A stretch of DNA of 64,000 bases from an uncultured Clostridia bacterium (GTDB taxonomy: Bacteria; Bacillota; Clostridia; Christensenellales; UBA1242): NCBI GenBank assembly GCA_947649575.1, contig CANSRZ010000006.1:12957-76956 (forward strand), written 5' to 3'. Shown in pieces: positions 4,683 through 39,825 of this stretch. The notes under the pieces are model-generated. The model was not told the DNA's origin and made no database searches. It was given only the letters and a program-made list of their open reading frames with translations. Every line of letters begins with the position of its first letter. Position 1 is the first letter of the stretch. Position numbers and translations under genes: made by a program.

Positions 4683-7025
4683 ATGTTGTCATTGTTATGT
4701 GATATTGAAAGTTCTTTGACTAATTTTTTTAGACAAGTTACTTCGGCAATAAAATTCAATGGCCTTTTTGCAATCGCAATTTGCGTTGAAATATTTTTTA
4801 TATTTCTATTTTTGTTAAGGTCTGCTTTCTCTTATGAACTTCGCCTGCGCAGAAGTCTGGATAAAGTGAACGGTTGGCTTTTTAAAAACAAAAAGTTAGA
4901 TAAAGACAATATTAAAGAATTTAACGAACTTGTCAAAAAAGGTCCAAAACGTTTGGTTTATTATTGGCAACAATTTATTCTCTATCGTGAAAAGGAACCT
5001 ACATATTATATGTCTATGGACAATCTTGTAGAGAAACCTTTGAAATCTTCTGGCTTTGCCAACAATATCAAAAATCTTAATATTGTGACTTGCCTTTGGT
5101 CTGCATTCATCTTGCTTATGGGCGTTGCTTACCAATTTGCAAACGGTGACGGCTCATTAAGACTTGGCGCGCTTGTTGGAATTTTGATTTTGCCAGTTTT
5201 AATCTTGGTTATTGGATATATTACAACAATCATTATGCGTGCAAGAAAAATTGCTAACCTTGATGAAATTTATCACATGTATCACATCTTTGCAAGATTT
5301 ATCAACAATGCAAGTGTAGATCTTCCTCCATATATTGATTATGATATTTTATTCTCTCCAAAAGAGATTGAAAAAGGAAATCCTCAGCTTCGCGAATATT
5401 ATGAAACTCGCGCAAGAAAAGCAAAAGAGGAGTTTGAAAAAACAAAACAAAGTGACATTGAATATGTTGAATACAATTTCCAAGACGCTGGCGTAGACGG
5501 GTCACTTGTGCTTGAAAGAGCTATGAAAGAAAGTGAAAGCTTTTCTAACAAAAAGTCTAGCACTCTTGCAAAGATTGCACATGTTGACGCTCAAAAAGAA
5601 GCTTTGAAACGTAACTATGAAAATGTTCAGAAAGATTTGCAACGCAAAATTCAGACTTCAAAAGAAAATATTCAAAAACTTATTCAACAACAAGAAGCAA
5701 CAACAAACAGAATGGAAGTTGGCTTCTTGAGAAAGCAACAAGAGCAAGAACTTGCTAAGCAAGAGGCTCTTCAAGCAGAGTATGATCAAGAAGAAACTCG
5801 TTATGCTGTATCTAATGAAGAACTTAATCAAGAAATCACTGCTCTTAATAAGCAACTTGATGAGGCTAAAGAAAATGTTCAAAAAGCCATGGTGGCAGAG
5901 TATCAATCTTTCTATGAAAAGATTATGAAAACCGCTTATGAAAATGCAGAAAGTCGTGTAGCAAAAGAAAAGACAGAACTTAGACATGCAAAAGACAAAA
6001 ATGAAAAAGACCTTATTGTTGTTCAAACCCAGGTTAAACGTTTGATTGATGAAAATGAAACTTTGCGTGCTAGATTCAATGAGGGTAAACCTGTTGAAGA
6101 ACAAATCCCTGCAACTTCACAAGTACAAGAAGTTGTTCAAGAGCAAGAAACTCCAAAAGGGCAATATGATGTAAATGGCAACTATGTTTATGAAGACGGC
6201 TCTTATCATGATCCAAACGGATTATTCCATGACGTCGACGGCAAAATCTATGACATGAATGGCACACTTATAAGAGAGCCAGAAGATGATAAAATAATTG
6301 AGCCAACTCCTGTTCAGGAAGCGCCTGTTCAACAAGAACCTGTTCAAGCACAGCCAGTTCAAGAGCCTGTTCAGCCAAAACCTGCTGAATATATGGTGGA
6401 AGATGTCAGTCTTGATGAAATCTTTGGTGAACCTGCTCAGCCAACAGCACCTGTTCAAGCACAGCCAGCTCATCAATCAGAGCAAACTCCTGTTCAGACA
6501 GAGCCTGCACCTGTTCAGCCAACTTATGTGGCAGAAAAAGCACCTGCTCAATCAGCAAGCAGAGGAAGAGGTCGCCCTAAAAAAGTGGTAACTGAACCTG
6601 CTCAGCCTAAAGAGCCTAAAAAACGGGGGCGTCCCAAGAAAAACGAGTCTAGTATAGGTTCGAAAACAAGCGCAAGCAAAACAACAGCAAAACGCTCGCC
6701 TTATAAAACAACAACTTCAAAGGCTAAGGCTAATGACGATTTGGACCTTGTGAGTCTTGCCAAAATCAACAAGCTTATCACAGAGGAAGAAAGCAGGCTT
6801 AGCAAAATGAAAGCACTTGTTAATTCTGAGATCACTGATGCCTTGAATGATAATGAGGCTCAAGAAATCAATGATGAGCGTCAAGAAATCATGAAAGCTG
6901 TTGAAGCGCTTAGAATGAAAGCTGAAGAAGCTAAACAAGAAGGGAAATCTGAGCAAGAGCTTGCAGGAATCAATGCAAGGCTTGAAAGTCTTATTAAAGA
7001 GATTTCAGAACTTAATAAAAAATAA
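4683..7025 (+). CDS. Membrane-anchored coiled-coil protein with PVQ repeats and two AT-hook-like RGRP cores; function unknown
   Basis: TAGGAGG RBS. N-terminal hydrophobic segments, a long E/K/Q-rich region, and the motifs SRGRGRPKK and KRGRPKK. Confidence 0.65.
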   Translation: MLSLLCDIESSLTNFFRQVTSAIKFNGLFAIAICVEIFFIFLFLLRSAFSYELRLRRSLDKVNGWLFKNKKLDKDNIKEFNELVKKGPKRLVYYWQQFILYREKEPTYYMSMDNLVEKPLKSSGFANNIKNLNIVTCLWSAFILLMGVAYQFANGDGSLRLGALVGILILPVLILVIGYITTIIMRARKIANLDEIYHMYHIFARFINNASVDLPPYIDYDILFSPKEIEKGNPQLREYYETRARKAKEEFEKTKQSDIEYVEYNFQDAGVDGSLVLERAMKESESFSNKKSSTLAKIAHVDAQKEALKRNYENVQKDLQRKIQTSKENIQKLIQQQEATTNRMEVGFLRKQQEQELAKQEALQAEYDQEETRYAVSNEELNQEITALNKQLDEAKENVQKAMVAEYQSFYEKIMKTAYENAESRVAKEKTELRHAKDKNEKDLIVVQTQVKRLIDENETLRARFNEGKPVEEQIPATSQVQEVVQEQETPKGQYDVNGNYVYEDGSYHDPNGLFHDVDGKIYDMNGTLIREPEDDKIIEPTPVQEAPVQQEPVQAQPVQEPVQPKPAEYMVEDVSLDEIFGEPAQPTAPVQAQPAHQSEQTPVQTEPAPVQPTYVAEKAPAQSASRGRGRPKKVVTEPAQPKEPKKRGRPKKNESSIGSKTSASKTTAKRSPYKTTTSKAKANDDLDLVSLAKINKLITEEESRLSKMKALVNSEITDALNDNEAQEINDERQEIMKAVEALRMKAEEAKQEGKSEQELAGINARLESLIKEISELNKK

Positions 7026-7111
7026 GAAGAGTTAATCCACTCTTCTTTTTTTGTAACAAATAAAAATTAAAAAGAAATTTGTCATTATCACTTTAAATTT
7101 AAAAAGTTTTG

Positions 7112-7120
7112 TGCTAAAAT
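7112..7120 (+). promoter_or_regulatory. Extended -10 promoter (TGCTAAAAT) placed 6 nt before the ATG; candidate leaderless transcript
   Basis: TG-C-TAAAAT at 7112-7120 and ATG at 7127, with no Shine-Dalgarno sequence between them. Confidence 0.5.
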
Positions 7121-7126
7121 ATTGCC

Positions 7127-7909
7127 ATGCGAGTTGTTAATCTAGCCTCAGGCAGTGACGGAAACTTAACATATATTGAAACTGATAACAGCAAGATTTT
7201 GCTGGATATGGGTCTGTCATGCACTGAAACAACCAAGAGATTGGAGCTGTTGAATGTTAGTCCTGGTGATATAGATGCTATTCTTGTCACTCATCAACAC
7301 TCAGATCACATAAAAGGTCTTGATGTGTTTTCATCTAAGTATAATGTCCCAATTTATTCTCATCGAGAAATTTGGGATGGCTTAGATGAAAAGTTGAATA
7401 AAGTTAGTTTAAGAAACAGGAAAGCATTTGACGGCGATTTTGAGTTTAAAGATTTGACTATTATGCCATTTGAAGTGCCTCATGATGTTAAATGTTTTGC
7501 GTTCTCATTTTTGAACGATGGCAGAAAAGTTAGTGTAATGACTGACCTTGGTCATGTTAATGATGTGATTTTAAGCAAGATTGAGCATAGCCAACTTGTT
7601 TATCTTGAAGCAAATTATGACAAGCAAATGTTGATGAATGGTGATAAATATCCACTTACTCTAAAAAGAAGAATTGCAGGTCCAAGAGGGCATTTGTCAA
7701 ATGACGATAGTGCGTCAGTTGCAAAATTTTTAACTCAAACTGGCACAAGACAAATTGTTTTATCCCATGTTAGCAAAGAGAATAATACTCCATCGCTAGC
7801 CTATGAGTACATATGTGAAAAACTTTATCAAGAGGGAATTGAAGAGGGGAAAGGTGTTAAAATTGATGTCGCTTCCCCTCGTCCAGGAGCAATTTTTAAG
7901 TTAAAATAG
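7127..7909 (+). CDS. MBL-fold metallo-hydrolase (YycJ/WalJ-like)
   Basis: HQHSDH metal-binding motif and the N-terminal LASGSDGN signature of the beta-lactamase fold. Confidence 0.75.
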   Translation: MRVVNLASGSDGNLTYIETDNSKILLDMGLSCTETTKRLELLNVSPGDIDAILVTHQHSDHIKGLDVFSSKYNVPIYSHREIWDGLDEKLNKVSLRNRKAFDGDFEFKDLTIMPFEVPHDVKCFAFSFLNDGRKVSVMTDLGHVNDVILSKIEHSQLVYLEANYDKQMLMNGDKYPLTLKRRIAGPRGHLSNDDSASVAKFLTQTGTRQIVLSHVSKENNTPSLAYEYICEKLYQEGIEEGKGVKIDVASPRPGAIFKLK

Positions 7910-8113
7910 CCAAAAATATAAAGATTATAGAAATTTAAATGTTATTTTTAAACCCCAAATTTGCGAAAAATGCCCAATTTGGGGCTTTTTTAAGTCAAAT
8001 TTAATAAAAAATCACAGAAAAGTGCATAATTTGCATATATTTTTTTATTATACCCCTTGAAAAATCAAAAAATTTGTGCTAAAATATATAAAGTAATGGA
8101 GGGAACAAAATCT

Positions 8114-10561
8114 ATGGAAGAAAAAAATATAAACACTATTTATCAACTTTCAGAATTAATGAGTGAGGGTAAGCCAGGGAATGACGTTGCCAACTTTATG
8201 ATTGAAAACAATAAGTTGACTGATATGCAGTTTGGAGATGTCCTTGTTAAGGACAATAATGGAAACATTATGCGTAATGCGGACTATAGTCCTGTTATTG
8301 AAGAGGGTTTTAATATGCATAGCCTTGCTTCTTCGTTTGTAACTGATAATATGGATGTTGAAGATTTTGGCAAAGAGTTGGAATCAAAACGTAATGCTAA
8401 TGTTGTATCAAAAATCAAAAACTCTGCTATTGACAATGAAGCATGGAATGATATTAAGTTAAGCCGTAAAAATAAAGAGGTTAAACATAAATCGCCTGCT
8501 TGCAAAGTTGCAAGTTTTATTCAAGATAAAGATTTTGGCATTGAAGATGTTGACGGAGTATTTACTAACGCTAGCGACAACATGATTTTGTTGGAAAGCT
8601 TAACCAATGATGGAGAAGTAAGCAAAGTTCAAAATGCCAACAAGCCTGTTGAAATCTTTATGTGGCGCGCTTTAAGATATTTTGGCGAAATGAAAAGAAA
8701 GGTTATTGTTTCCTCAAAGAAAAACCCTGATGAAAAAATTGTTAAAGAAGAGGACTATAATCCACTTACTCCATTTGTTGCAACTGCAATTTTAGCAAGA
8801 ACTTTTGCTGGCACATATTATGGCAAAAAGAGCGCAATGGTTGATAATATTGAAAATGTTCTTGAAACTTATATGTTGGCTCTTATCAAACATGATATGG
8901 TTGGAACTCAAAGATATACTGGCAAAGAATATGACACTGCTCTTATAGAAAATATTGTTAATGATGCAATCAATTTGGTAGATGTGGCTGTTGAAAATAT
9001 CAATCTTCAAGAAAACGGAAATAAAATCACTGTTAAACCTAGCGCATATCTTCACGATCTTAACTTGTGCAAAACTTTGGGCGTTGCACCAATGGATGTA
9101 GAGCATATTATGTCTGATATTGATCAAGGCGCAACATCTCCACTTAGTTATGTAGATGAAAGAGGATTTACAACACCTATTTTTGCAGATGAAAGCGATT
9201 TTGTGTTTGCTGATGAACAAGATCTTGTTAAACTTGTTGCAAGCGGTGAGAAAAATCAAGTTTGGTCAGCGCTTAAAAGAATCCAGGCTGAAATTGTTGG
9301 CGTAGATGTAAATGGCGGTCAAGTGGATAGCAGATTTGTTGACCATACAAAGAACTTGCAATTTGCTGTTAGGGCTGTAAAACTTTTGGAAATCGCTGGG
9401 CTTGCTAACAAAAACCCTGAACTTGCACAGCAACTTGCTGAGGGCTTTGCAGAAGTTTACTCAGAGGGCGCTGTTGTATATAAAAACAACGAAGAACTTG
9501 CTGAGTTTGTTAAAACTGACCTTGAATACTTTTTGTCAAACCATCCTGAAATCAATAGGTTGGACTTGGCTAAGGCATCAATAAATAAAGTTATAGATAA
9601 AGCTCTTGCAAATTGGAGAGAGAATGGCAATAAAAAGCCTGCAACAAAAACTGTAAAGGCAAAGAAAGTTGAGTCTAAACAAGAAAGCAAAGCAGCAGAG
9701 TCAAAGGTTGAAAAGAAAGAAGAAAAACCTGTAAAAGAAAAGAAAGAGCCAGCTCCACAAACTGAAGAGGTTAAGCCTGCTGTTGAACAACCTAAAGAGA
9801 ACAAAGAAAAAGTTGTTCCAGAAGTAGTAAATAATGAAGAAAAACCTGCAACAGAGAAACCTGCTGCTGAAAACAAAACAGAAGAAAAGAAACCTGTAGC
9901 AAAGAAGAAAGTAGTTAAAAAGACTGCACCTGCTACTAAAAAACCAGTTGTGAAGAAAGAAGAAGTTGCTCCACAAGTTGAAAATAAAGAGGAAGTTAAA
10001 CCTGTTGAAGAGAAACCTAAGGCTAAAACACCTGCAAAGAAAACTTCTAACACTCAAACAAAGAAAAAGGCAACAGTTAAAAAGACTGTAAAACCTGCAG
10101 AAAAAACTGAAGAACTTGCAGAAACAACACTTGCAAAGAAAGCTCCTGCAAAACGCAAGACTAAAACTGAAAAGGTTTCAGAGGCAACTCCTGAAGTTAA
10201 AAATCTTGAACAACTTAAACTTATTGCTCAAGAAAGTGCAGTTAAGTTTGCAGACTTGATTGTAACAGGTTCAAATGTGCCTGCTGCAAAGGTTACTTAT
10301 ATGGCAAAAGTTGCAGCAAACTTCAGATCTGACGCAGCAAGAGGAACTATTGAAAATAGACAACTTACTGCAACAGAAAAAAATGCATTCCAAAAAATGC
10401 CTGTAGAAGTTCGTGAAGCTATCAGAGCTTTGGCAGATTTGAAAGAGGAAGCTTTGCCAAATGAAAAATATGCAATTTCAGAGGGAGAAGCAATTGCTCG
10501 TCAAATCTCAGAAAGTTATGATGAAGCTCATAAGAAATCTTCAGACGAAGAAAGACAATAA
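8114..10561 (+). CDS. Large hypothetical protein with a K/E/P/A-rich low-complexity region (histone-H1-like KKxxAKK runs)
   Basis: Long ORF. GGAGGG lies 10 nt upstream of ATG 8114; alternative in-frame ATG at 8096. The antisense ORFs inside the repeat region look compositional. Confidence 0.6.
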   Translation: MEEKNINTIYQLSELMSEGKPGNDVANFMIENNKLTDMQFGDVLVKDNNGNIMRNADYSPVIEEGFNMHSLASSFVTDNMDVEDFGKELESKRNANVVSKIKNSAIDNEAWNDIKLSRKNKEVKHKSPACKVASFIQDKDFGIEDVDGVFTNASDNMILLESLTNDGEVSKVQNANKPVEIFMWRALRYFGEMKRKVIVSSKKNPDEKIVKEEDYNPLTPFVATAILARTFAGTYYGKKSAMVDNIENVLETYMLALIKHDMVGTQRYTGKEYDTALIENIVNDAINLVDVAVENINLQENGNKITVKPSAYLHDLNLCKTLGVAPMDVEHIMSDIDQGATSPLSYVDERGFTTPIFADESDFVFADEQDLVKLVASGEKNQVWSALKRIQAEIVGVDVNGGQVDSRFVDHTKNLQFAVRAVKLLEIAGLANKNPELAQQLAEGFAEVYSEGAVVYKNNEELAEFVKTDLEYFLSNHPEINRLDLAKASINKVIDKALANWRENGNKKPATKTVKAKKVESKQESKAAESKVEKKEEKPVKEKKEPAPQTEEVKPAVEQPKENKEKVVPEVVNNEEKPATEKPAAENKTEEKKPVAKKKVVKKTAPATKKPVVKKEEVAPQVENKEEVKPVEEKPKAKTPAKKTSNTQTKKKATVKKTVKPAEKTEELAETTLAKKAPAKRKTKTEKVSEATPEVKNLEQLKLIAQESAVKFADLIVTGSNVPAAKVTYMAKVAANFRSDAARGTIENRQLTATEKNAFQKMPVEVREAIRALADLKEEALPNEKYAISEGEAIARQISESYDEAHKKSSDEERQ

Positions 10562-38460: not shown

Positions 38461-38506
38461 TGGTGGAGAATAACGGATTCGAACCGTTGACCTCCTGCTT
38501 GCAAGG
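38461..38506 (-). repeat. attL: displaced 3' 46 nt of tRNA-Ala(UGC)
   Basis: Identical to 50684-50729. The original downstream terminator hairpin is retained at about 38427-38452. Confidence 0.9.
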
Positions 38507-38641
38507 AATAACCACAAAGGCTACAAGCCTTTAAAATAAAGAAGAATACGCTTCGGCAATGGGTGTTTCCCAATATTTTCCCAATAATTAAAAAAAAGAC
38601 TAAGCATTTTGCCTAGTCTTTTCATTTTTAATCTCCTTTAA

Positions 38642-38962
38642 CTATAATTCTAGCGAAACTGCTAATGCTTTATCGACTTCTTGCATTTTTGATTTTGGCA
38701 ACTTACAAACATAATTCCGTAATCGTCTTTTATCTATTGTTTTTAACTGCTCTGTAAGTATTAATGACGGCTTATCAAGTTTTACATAAATATGTGTTGG
38801 CAAAAATGGCTTTGTCATTTTACTTGTTATTGCAGCTACTATAACTGTTGGTGAATACTTATTGCCTACATCGTTTTGAATAATCAATACTGGCCTTAAA
38901 CCGCCTTGTTCACTACCAACAACATTTTCTAACTCTGCATAATAAATTTGTCCTCTTAGCAT
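38642..38962 (-). CDS. mazF: MazF/PemK-family endoribonuclease toxin
   Basis: RGQIYYAEL...[34 protein letters not shown] closely follows the MazF/EndoA signature. The start lies 2 nt after the upstream stop. Confidence 0.85.
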
Positions 38963-38964
38963 AT

Positions 38965-39816
38965 TTACTCCAAAAAATTTAAAGTATTTTTATCTTTACC
39001 TTTCTCTCCATAAAGCCACCAATTAAAAACTTCTTCGCCAGTTTTCCAAGTGCATTTGTCTTTATTTGGCATTTGCTCTAACATTTTATTGAAAGTTGCA
39101 ATATAGGCTTTTTTAAAACCTGGCCATCTTTCAAATTCTTTTTCTCTTTGATGTGTTGGAGCCATAGGACAACCAATACAACCAATTCTTGTGAAATTTT
39201 CATCATAAAGACAACAATAAGAAAGATTTTGTTTTTTAATAAACTCCCATATATCTTGTTCAGTCCAATCAATAATAGGATTTACAACAAATTTTCCTTT
39301 AAGTTGGCAAACTTCAAAAAACTTTCTTTCTTTTTCATTATCATTAAAAAGCATTTTTTCTTTACCTCTTGCAAATCTTTCAAAAGGCTTACGATTGTTT
39401 TTTCTTCGAGTGCTTTCAGCCCAACGAACACCAGTCAAACAATAACGACCTTGACCACCACGCTCTTTTAATTCAGAGCAACAAAATCTAATCAATCTTG
39501 TTGGTGGTAAATGTTTTTCAATAATTAACTGAAACATAGATTTTTCAAAATTATGCCAAATCAAATTCGGGTAATTATCTTTCATAAACTTTATTACTTC
39601 AGGTGGGTCTATTCCAGTAATATTATAATGTAATTCATAAGGAATTTTTGCAAGTCTACATAATTCAGCAACAACTATACTATCTTTACCACCGCTAAAA
39701 GCAACATATAATGCTCCTAAATCTCTACTTTTACTTTGTTCATAAGCAAACTTAATTCTGTCTATTGCTGTATCAATTTTATTATTTTCCCCAAAGAATG
39801 TATTTTCAATTAACAT
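38965..39816 (-). CDS. PP-loop ATP-pyrophosphatase, PAPS-reductase/DndC-like
   Basis: SGGKDS PP-loop and a C-terminal Cys cluster (CCLYD...CIGCP). Confidence 0.75.
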
Positions 39817-39825
39817 AAAACACCT

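Follow-up and report, generated by a model that had tools for sequence, protein, structure and literature searches.

The mazF gene of this prophage and the PP-loop gene that precedes it are best explained, with a probability of about two in three, as two independent accessory genes that occupy neighbouring positions in a variable slot at the 3' terminus of the rep operon. According to this explanation, the PP-loop gene would be a member of the very large "PAPS reductase-like" family, whose genes stand alone in phages, and would be a bystander to mazF, and the MazF protein would be an intact EndoA-type, sequence-specific mRNA endoribonuclease that was captured without an antitoxin and that is not neutralised by the PP-loop protein. 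A preliminary description of these genes had proposed that the PP-loop protein stands in for a MazE antitoxin or forms a functional module with the toxin. All coordinates refer to positions within the 64,000-nt stretch of DNA that was analysed, hereafter called the window.

The prophage element and its ends

The two genes are located in an element of 12.2 kb (38461-50729), which is integrated in a tRNA-Ala(UGC) gene (50684-50760). The 3' end of the tRNA-Ala gene is duplicated as a 46-nt direct repeat, with 100% identity between 38461-38506, where it marks the end of the element (minus strand), and 50684-50729. Genes for a tyrosine integrase, a 142-aa membrane protein and an HTH_3 protein are encoded on the plus strand, while the minus strand encodes small membrane and secreted proteins, a Zot-like P-loop ATPase, Rep, the PP-loop protein and MazF. 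The element is a filamentous-phage-like (inovirus-like) prophage with a circovirus-type (CRESS-type) Rep, and integrated filamentous-type elements of this kind have been described previously (Roux et al., 2019; PMC6813254). The Rep protein (39826-40917, minus strand), which consists of an HUH nuclease (PF02407, E 1.6e-15) and an SF3 helicase (PF00910, E 8.5e-10), is encoded by the first gene of the unit that also contains the PP-loop gene and mazF.

The HTH_3 (XRE-type) protein (48432-48791, plus strand; PF01381, E 9.5e-15) is presumed to be the prophage repressor, and as such might silence transcription of the operon in which mazF comes last. Its gene is divergent from the minus-strand phage genes, as are the promoter-like sites, and about 2.4 copies of a 31-nt unit with the core GCACAGTTTTCTAAC are located at 48285-48359, in the interval that separates the promoter of the HTH_3 gene from the divergent one of the phage operon. 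These repeats are probably the operators of the repressor. Downstream of the mazF stop codon, the order is an intrinsic terminator (38593-38623, minus strand), which was identified in a terminator scan and closes the cargo slot, then two arm-type repeats, and finally the att repeat. The arm-type repeats (about two copies of TTTCCCAATAT, 38566-38586) have a counterpart near the integrase end, where about two copies of ATTTTTCCCAAT were found at 50575-50599, and the short repeats just inside both ends of the element are probably arm-type binding sites for the integrase.

The mazF gene and its junction with the PP-loop gene

The rep operon ends with the mazF gene (38642-38962, minus strand), which codes for a solitary EndoA/MazF-type mRNA interferase of 106 aa. 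The protein matched PF02452 with an E-value of 1.2e-30 and 106 bits (cut-off 23), and phrog_1936, "MazF-like growth inhibitor", with an E-value of 8.7e-32. It aligns over its full length with S. aureus MazF and B. subtilis EndoA (PDB 4of1, 4mzm and 4mdx; E ~1e-33), and both the catalytic Arg in GG(L)RP and the catalytic Thr in AAIT are retained in the alignment to 4of1 and 4mdx. The protein is predicted to be a PemK/MazF-fold endoribonuclease with its catalytic Arg/Thr in place, in agreement with the preliminary description, in which it was called canonical. The junction also reads as described there, with the ATG of mazF located 2 nt past the stop codon of the 283-aa gene for the SGGKDS PP-loop protein. 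On the minus strand, the junction (38960-38975) is TTGGAG TAA AT ATG, such that the GGAG Shine-Dalgarno sequence falls within the last codons of the PP-loop gene. The stop codon of rep is separated from the start of the PP-loop gene by only 9 nt, and given these gaps of 9 and 2 nt, rep, the PP-loop gene and mazF are closely packed into a single unit.

The MazF protein differs from its characterised relatives by a single 5-residue deletion in a beta-hairpin and by an N-terminus that is shorter than in all of them. These features, the long stem of its lineage in the MazF tree and the lack of an antitoxin in cis could be taken to indicate that the protein is attenuated or inactive, a decaying remnant that has lost its antitoxin and is tolerated since its RNA cleavage is poor. 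However, the gene has an uninterrupted reading frame and still codes for nearly all of the conserved blocks, in addition to the catalytic residues. Moreover, an identical copy of the protein was found on 9 contigs, and the sole known close variant, which is 96% identical, contains four changes, all of them conservative. We consider such decay unlikely.

In the search for known defence systems with PADLOC, MazF gave no match and the PP-loop protein matched the BrxP and DndC domains only. Small GenBank records named "Bacteriophage sp." that contain MazF were unrelated high-GC fragments with neither Rep nor Zot.

Family, fold and likely role of the PP-loop protein

The PP-loop gene (38965-39816, minus strand) encodes a PAPS-reductase-like PP-loop ATP pyrophosphatase of 283 aa with the motifs SGGKDS and CC...CxxC. 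The protein belongs to the phage PAPS-reductase-like family (PHROG 424/PF01507), as seen from its matches to PF01507 (E 1.1e-22, 81 bits, cut-off 22.5) and to phrog_424 (E 4.5e-39). More than 7750 homologues of similar length were identified, and the protein is colinear from end to end with the stand-alone homologues, with no extra segment or domain. In the alignment of homologues, residues S41-S46, C112, C113, C201 and C213 are invariant and C216 is nearly invariant; the CC...CxxC cysteines would provide a 4Fe-4S site. The AlphaFold (AF2) model (pLDDT 82.7) consists of an ordinary adenine-nucleotide alpha-hydrolase/PAPS-reductase-type domain, for which the best fold matches were the PAPS domain of FAD synthase, an iron-sulfur APS reductase, CysD and CysH. 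No antitoxin-like fold was recognised in the model. A search of 200 genomes from the host family yielded no match to the PP-loop protein, the closest relatives of which form a series at 72-79% identity in Logan/ENA assemblies.

Assignments to the better-known members of the superfamily were considered and rejected. For CysH or another APS/PAPS reductase, the scores were 50.7 bits against a cut-off of 165 (TIGR00434) and 44 against 235 (TIGR02055), and the conserved catalytic Cys near the C-terminus is missing, with C254, the sole Cys in the last 67 residues, falling in a non-conserved column. The match to DndC reached 22 bits against a cut-off of 290 (TIGR03183) and was also weak in PADLOC (E 5e-5), and the PADLOC match to BrxP (E 7e-16) covers the PP-loop domain only. 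Partner genes of the Dnd, Ssp and BREX systems (DndABDE, SspABC, BREX core) were absent from the 12-kb element. Phage PAPS reductases have been viewed as DndC/SspD-like candidates for counter-defence that may modify DNA (PMC13551039). The most likely role of the enzyme would be the adenylation of a nucleic-acid or small-molecule substrate, for modification or counter-defence.

Conservation of the gene pair

We compared the gene neighbourhoods of PP-loop homologues, of viral MazF proteins and of Rep relatives. The first set consisted of 240 loci with homologues at 33-57% identity, of which 80 each came from species-representative genomes, IMG/VR and metagenomes. These were retrieved by alignment-based scans (single-protein scans of genome and viral contigs gave none), with flanks of up to 4-6 kb per side, 1.89 Mb in total, and with at least 500 nt downstream of the gene in 214 of them. 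Neither tblastn nor a MazF profile HMM, used at E-values up to 1, identified a MazF/PemK protein in any of the 240 loci. Conversely, a PP-loop gene was present in none of 44 viral MazF loci from IMG/VR, and the pairing was absent from all 29 related Rep loci, so that it was found nowhere else among the loci searched. The top matches of MazF and of the PP-loop protein, compared by their listed size, had no contig in common, which is weak evidence in the same direction. Besides the 96% variant, the nearest relatives of MazF are chromosomal proteins that are 63-68% identical, and there were no relatives between 68% and 96% identity in the protein collection. This gap argues, if indirectly, that the elements with PP-loop relatives at 72-79% identity lack an orthologous MazF. 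A conserved pair may nevertheless exist within this narrow lineage.

The usual neighbours of PP-loop genes were C5 and N6/N4 DNA methylases, SSB, PcfK-like proteins and proteins of unknown function, and no neighbour was constant among the loci surveyed. The next gene on the same strand starts within 10 nt of the PP-loop stop codon in 59 of 165 cases, and the gap of 2 nt is therefore normal phage packing rather than a sign of partnership. A survey of the gut virome places genes for CysH-like and MazF-like proteins with the most widespread accessory genes that phages carry there (PMC12291355), which makes their chance adjacency in one slot unsurprising.

These patterns bear directly on the proposal that the PP-loop enzyme is the partner of MazF, either as a protein antitoxin or regulator or as part of a modification-gated abortive-infection module. 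The 2-nt gap and the Shine-Dalgarno sequence inside the upstream gene do imply co-translation, the search in cis gave no other antitoxin, and in inoviruses, known toxins are reportedly paired with antitoxins that are unrelated and unannotated (PMC6813254). On the other hand, co-occurrence was seen in none of the 240, 44 and 29 loci, and genes of the PP-loop family commonly lie just as close to neighbours that are unrelated. Nor does the protein carry a domain or tail that its stand-alone homologues lack, and its fold is not that of an antitoxin. Sister prophages (see below) contain either MazF without a PP-loop gene or neither of the two. We therefore do not uphold the proposal that the PP-loop protein replaces MazE, and consider a partnership of any such kind very improbable.

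Sister elements and the variable slot

Relatives of the Rep protein were identified in 43 of 400 host-family genomes and in 23 of 58 genera, with two or three copies in some genomes. In the closest sister element (G406, L301), Rep is 78% and Zot 72% identical to the proteins of the window. The DNA homology to this element covers zot, the origin hairpin and rep, ends at window position 39884 and resumes only at the terminator (38635-38607; 30 nt, 90% identity). A single, unrelated ORF of 144 aa fills the interval between rep and the terminator in the sister. The break and resumption of homology define the segment from the 3' end of rep to the terminator as a replaceable cargo slot, and the placement of the pair at a variable cargo end of the element, as previously suggested, is borne out.

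Two further prophages, from other genomes of the same genus, have MazF after Rep. In a more distant element (G195, L298; G195:C1:182000-198000, 6472-8952), MazF directly follows Rep, with a duplicated fragment of the Rep helicase before it and ORFs of 99 and 75 aa after it. In the other, a CRESS-Rep element of G293 (L303, 648-1444), Rep is followed by a 69-aa ORF, MazF and a 78-aa ORF. Neither contains a PP-loop gene. Among 30 Rep loci including the window, MazF was located after Rep in three, all from the host genus, and a PP-loop gene was located after Rep in the window only. The small ORFs beside MazF in the sister prophages and in the IMG/VR loci represent no common family, and those of the sister prophages share none with the host antitoxin.

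In a phylogeny of MazF, which was inferred from 115 columns with a quick search only and is poorly resolved, the G195 protein was placed inside the clade of chromosomal MazF proteins from the genus (aLRT 94), and the protein of the window formed a long stem of its own together with the 96% variant. The three prophage proteins do not group together, which suggests separate captures rather than a single inherited gene. Judged from the tree, prophages of this genus appear to have taken up an antitoxin-less MazF more than once.

Search for an antitoxin in cis

No recognisable antitoxin gene adjoins mazF, which is flanked by the 283-aa PP-loop gene upstream and by the terminator and att repeat downstream. 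The operon contains no adjacent AbrB-, RHH- or host-type MazE antitoxin such as a MazEF module would have, PF04014 is absent from the whole host genome, and an HMM of the MazE-like family of the genus (see below) had no match in the prophage or in the sister prophages, with contig 7 as the only match in the genome. Neither an Rfam family nor a tandem-repeat RNA antitoxin was identified within the element.

The preliminary description had stated that only a terminator and an att site follow mazF. This holds for recognisable antitoxins, with the qualification that an ORF of 34 aa with a strong Shine-Dalgarno sequence is present downstream (38521-38625, minus strand), its ATG placed 12 nt after the mazF stop codon. 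Its course takes it through both the terminator hairpin and the arm repeats, and the closest sister element, which has kept the terminator, lacks the corresponding ATG. For these two reasons we judge it to be spurious, and it is probably not a gene.

A second feature is a 22-nt near-palindromic repeat with the core CTAnAATTnTAG, of which one copy (38637-38658) covers the mazF stop codon and the other (48399-48420) constitutes the -10 region of the presumed repressor promoter, with 21 of 22 positions identical. On the plus strand, the copy at the 3' end of mazF forms a promoter-like site, TTTTCA-18-TATAAT, which is directed antisense into the gene. An antitoxin could accordingly be sought in cis, in the form of the 34-aa ORF with its strong ribosome-binding site or of an antisense RNA transcribed from the 22-mer at 38637-38658. 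Against the ORF stand its course across the terminator and arm repeats and the loss of its start codon in the sister. As to the RNA, a 40-mer compared with the start region of the repressor gene agreed at 30 of 40 positions, marginally above the background, as given by the second-best genomic site (29 of 40), the number of promoter-like sites in the terminator/promoter scan equalled the expectation from shuffled sequence, and the Rfam search yielded no match. An overlooked antitoxin in cis is, in our assessment, improbable.

The core mazF locus of the host

The host genome (1.09 Mb) contains a second mazF gene, which is located after acpS on contig 7 and the product of which is 63% identical to the prophage MazF. 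The locus (L161:1489-2060, minus strand) includes an upstream gene for a protein of 79 aa (L161:1821-2060). A core mazF locus was found in 19 of 20 other genomes of the genus, and in all 10 core loci examined (L161, L289-L297) an overlapping ORF of 74-93 aa precedes mazF. These ORFs share the motifs KHxM and E(K/L)ADL(L/I)D(F/Y), the latter of which resembles the toxin-binding C-terminus of S. aureus MazE. The family matched nothing in Pfam, NCBIfam or PDB, the 79-aa host protein was not found by a single-sequence search of 80 genomes of the host family, and the family is recognised solely by its position and by the motifs shared across the genus. It probably represents an undescribed family of MazE-like antitoxins. 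With no antitoxin in cis and a MazE-like gene on contig 7, the prophage MazF is an orphan in cis with a related antitoxin in trans. The preliminary description had named a cognate antitoxin elsewhere, fully accounting for neutralisation, as a finding that would speak against its proposal; a MazE-like gene beside a related core mazF is indeed present, which answers to this finding in part.

This raises the question of whether the 79-aa host protein neutralises the prophage MazF in trans, with the prophage toxin both depending on the host mazEF locus and adding to its dose. The toxins are 63% identical overall and, by a count from the alignment, about 80% identical over the N-terminal 56 residues. 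The antitoxin family is kept upstream of mazF in each of the ten loci, the 79-aa gene is the only member of its family in the genome, and all three prophage MazF proteins of the genus lack a host-type antitoxin, one of them being clearly derived from a chromosomal mazF of the genus (aLRT 94). Cross-interactions between related toxin-antitoxin pairs have also been documented (PMC7354431, PMC10305079). However, type II antitoxins are usually specific for their own toxin, and the small ORFs next to mazF in the sister prophages could be antitoxins of their own. The differences between the prophage and host MazF are concentrated in the C-terminal half and the 5-aa hairpin deletion, and could weaken the binding of the host antitoxin. 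We regard neutralisation in trans as possible but well below even in likelihood; it can be combined with the explanation of two independent accessory genes.

Usage of UACAU

The MazF enzymes of B. subtilis and S. aureus cut at UACAU. We counted 4 such sites in the phage operon, as compared to 8.5 expected (ratio 0.47). In the host genes, 401 sites were observed on the sense strand versus 694 expected from synonymous shuffling (ratio 0.58; 558 long ORFs), and 628 on the antisense strand. With ratios of 0.47 and 0.58, there is no avoidance of UACAU that is specific to the phage genes, and since the depletion is like that of the host, nothing points to a protection of the phage mRNAs. The depletion on the sense strand of the host genes may reflect the activity of the core MazF or a general sequence bias.

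Discussion

The slot between rep and the terminator is best filed as an ordinary cargo site that holds two accessory genes widespread in gut phages. As first posed, the gene pair would have represented a new class of antitoxins or a modification-coupled toxin system, and the evidence points away from both. What it does offer is a clear case of a variable slot with well-defined bounds in the CRESS-Rep inovirus-like prophages of small-genome gut Bacillota. The interest that remains is modest and lies in the apparently repeated capture of an antitoxin-less MazF, in hosts that possess a mazEF-like core locus of their own.

The toxin would probably be held in check by prophage repression of the rep operon, by the antitoxin of the host acting in trans, or by both. 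In the first case to consider, mazF would be silenced as the last cistron of a repressor-controlled operon, and MazF would be made only during phage replication. In the second case, the core MazE-like antitoxin of the host would bind the prophage MazF in trans. The two controls may act alone or together. Once expressed, MazF would slow translation in the host during phage production; alternatively, it would add to the toxin dose in an abortive response to other phages. There is a precedent for a prophage toxin under the control of a prophage repressor only, in RacR/YdaS (PMC5700373).

A broader proposal is that CRESS-Rep prophages of this genus repeatedly capture an antitoxin-less MazF after rep and rely on the MazE-like antitoxin of the host, with the PP-loop gene as a bystander. 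We consider this rather unlikely. If it were true, a phage toxin would ride on and amplify the mazEF circuit of its host, and would provide an extra dose of toxin, for example upon loss of the labile antitoxin to stress or to a competing phage. Whether a host antitoxin can neutralise a phage toxin in trans is readily testable in this system.

Several known systems resemble parts of this arrangement. The prophage MazF shares the fold family and the catalytic Arg/Thr with the proteins of PHROG 1936, with B. subtilis NdoA and with S. aureus MazF, and it is about 55-60% identical to the solved B. subtilis and S. aureus proteins. Like the PHROG 1936 genes of gut phages it is an accessory gene carried by a phage. 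It departs from these systems in that it has no mazE upstream, its product carries the 5-aa hairpin deletion, and it closes the Rep operon of an inovirus-like prophage. The PP-loop protein has the SGGKDS and CC...CxxC motifs, the size and the colinearity of PHROG 424 proteins (often annotated as cysH), which are located among phage genes for replication and DNA modification. The gene is found here in a 12-kb element of the ssDNA type instead of a tailed phage. DndC, SspD and BrxP are distant relatives of these phage proteins.

The rac prophage of E. coli provides a parallel that may apply here, in that RacR silences the toxic gene ydaS in the lysogen and no classical antitoxin is involved. YdaS is from a toxin family different from MazF, and the repression of the mazF operon would be the corresponding step in the present element. 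A further resemblance is to the cargo of inoviruses described by Roux et al. (PMC6813254) and to CRESS-Rep elements of Bacillota, which like the present element combine a toxin as variable cargo with a tyrosine integrase and a Rep of the HUH and S3H type. The inovirus cargo consists of toxin-antitoxin pairs that stem nearly all from Proteobacteria, whereas the prophage described here carries a lone toxin in a small-genome host of the Bacillota.
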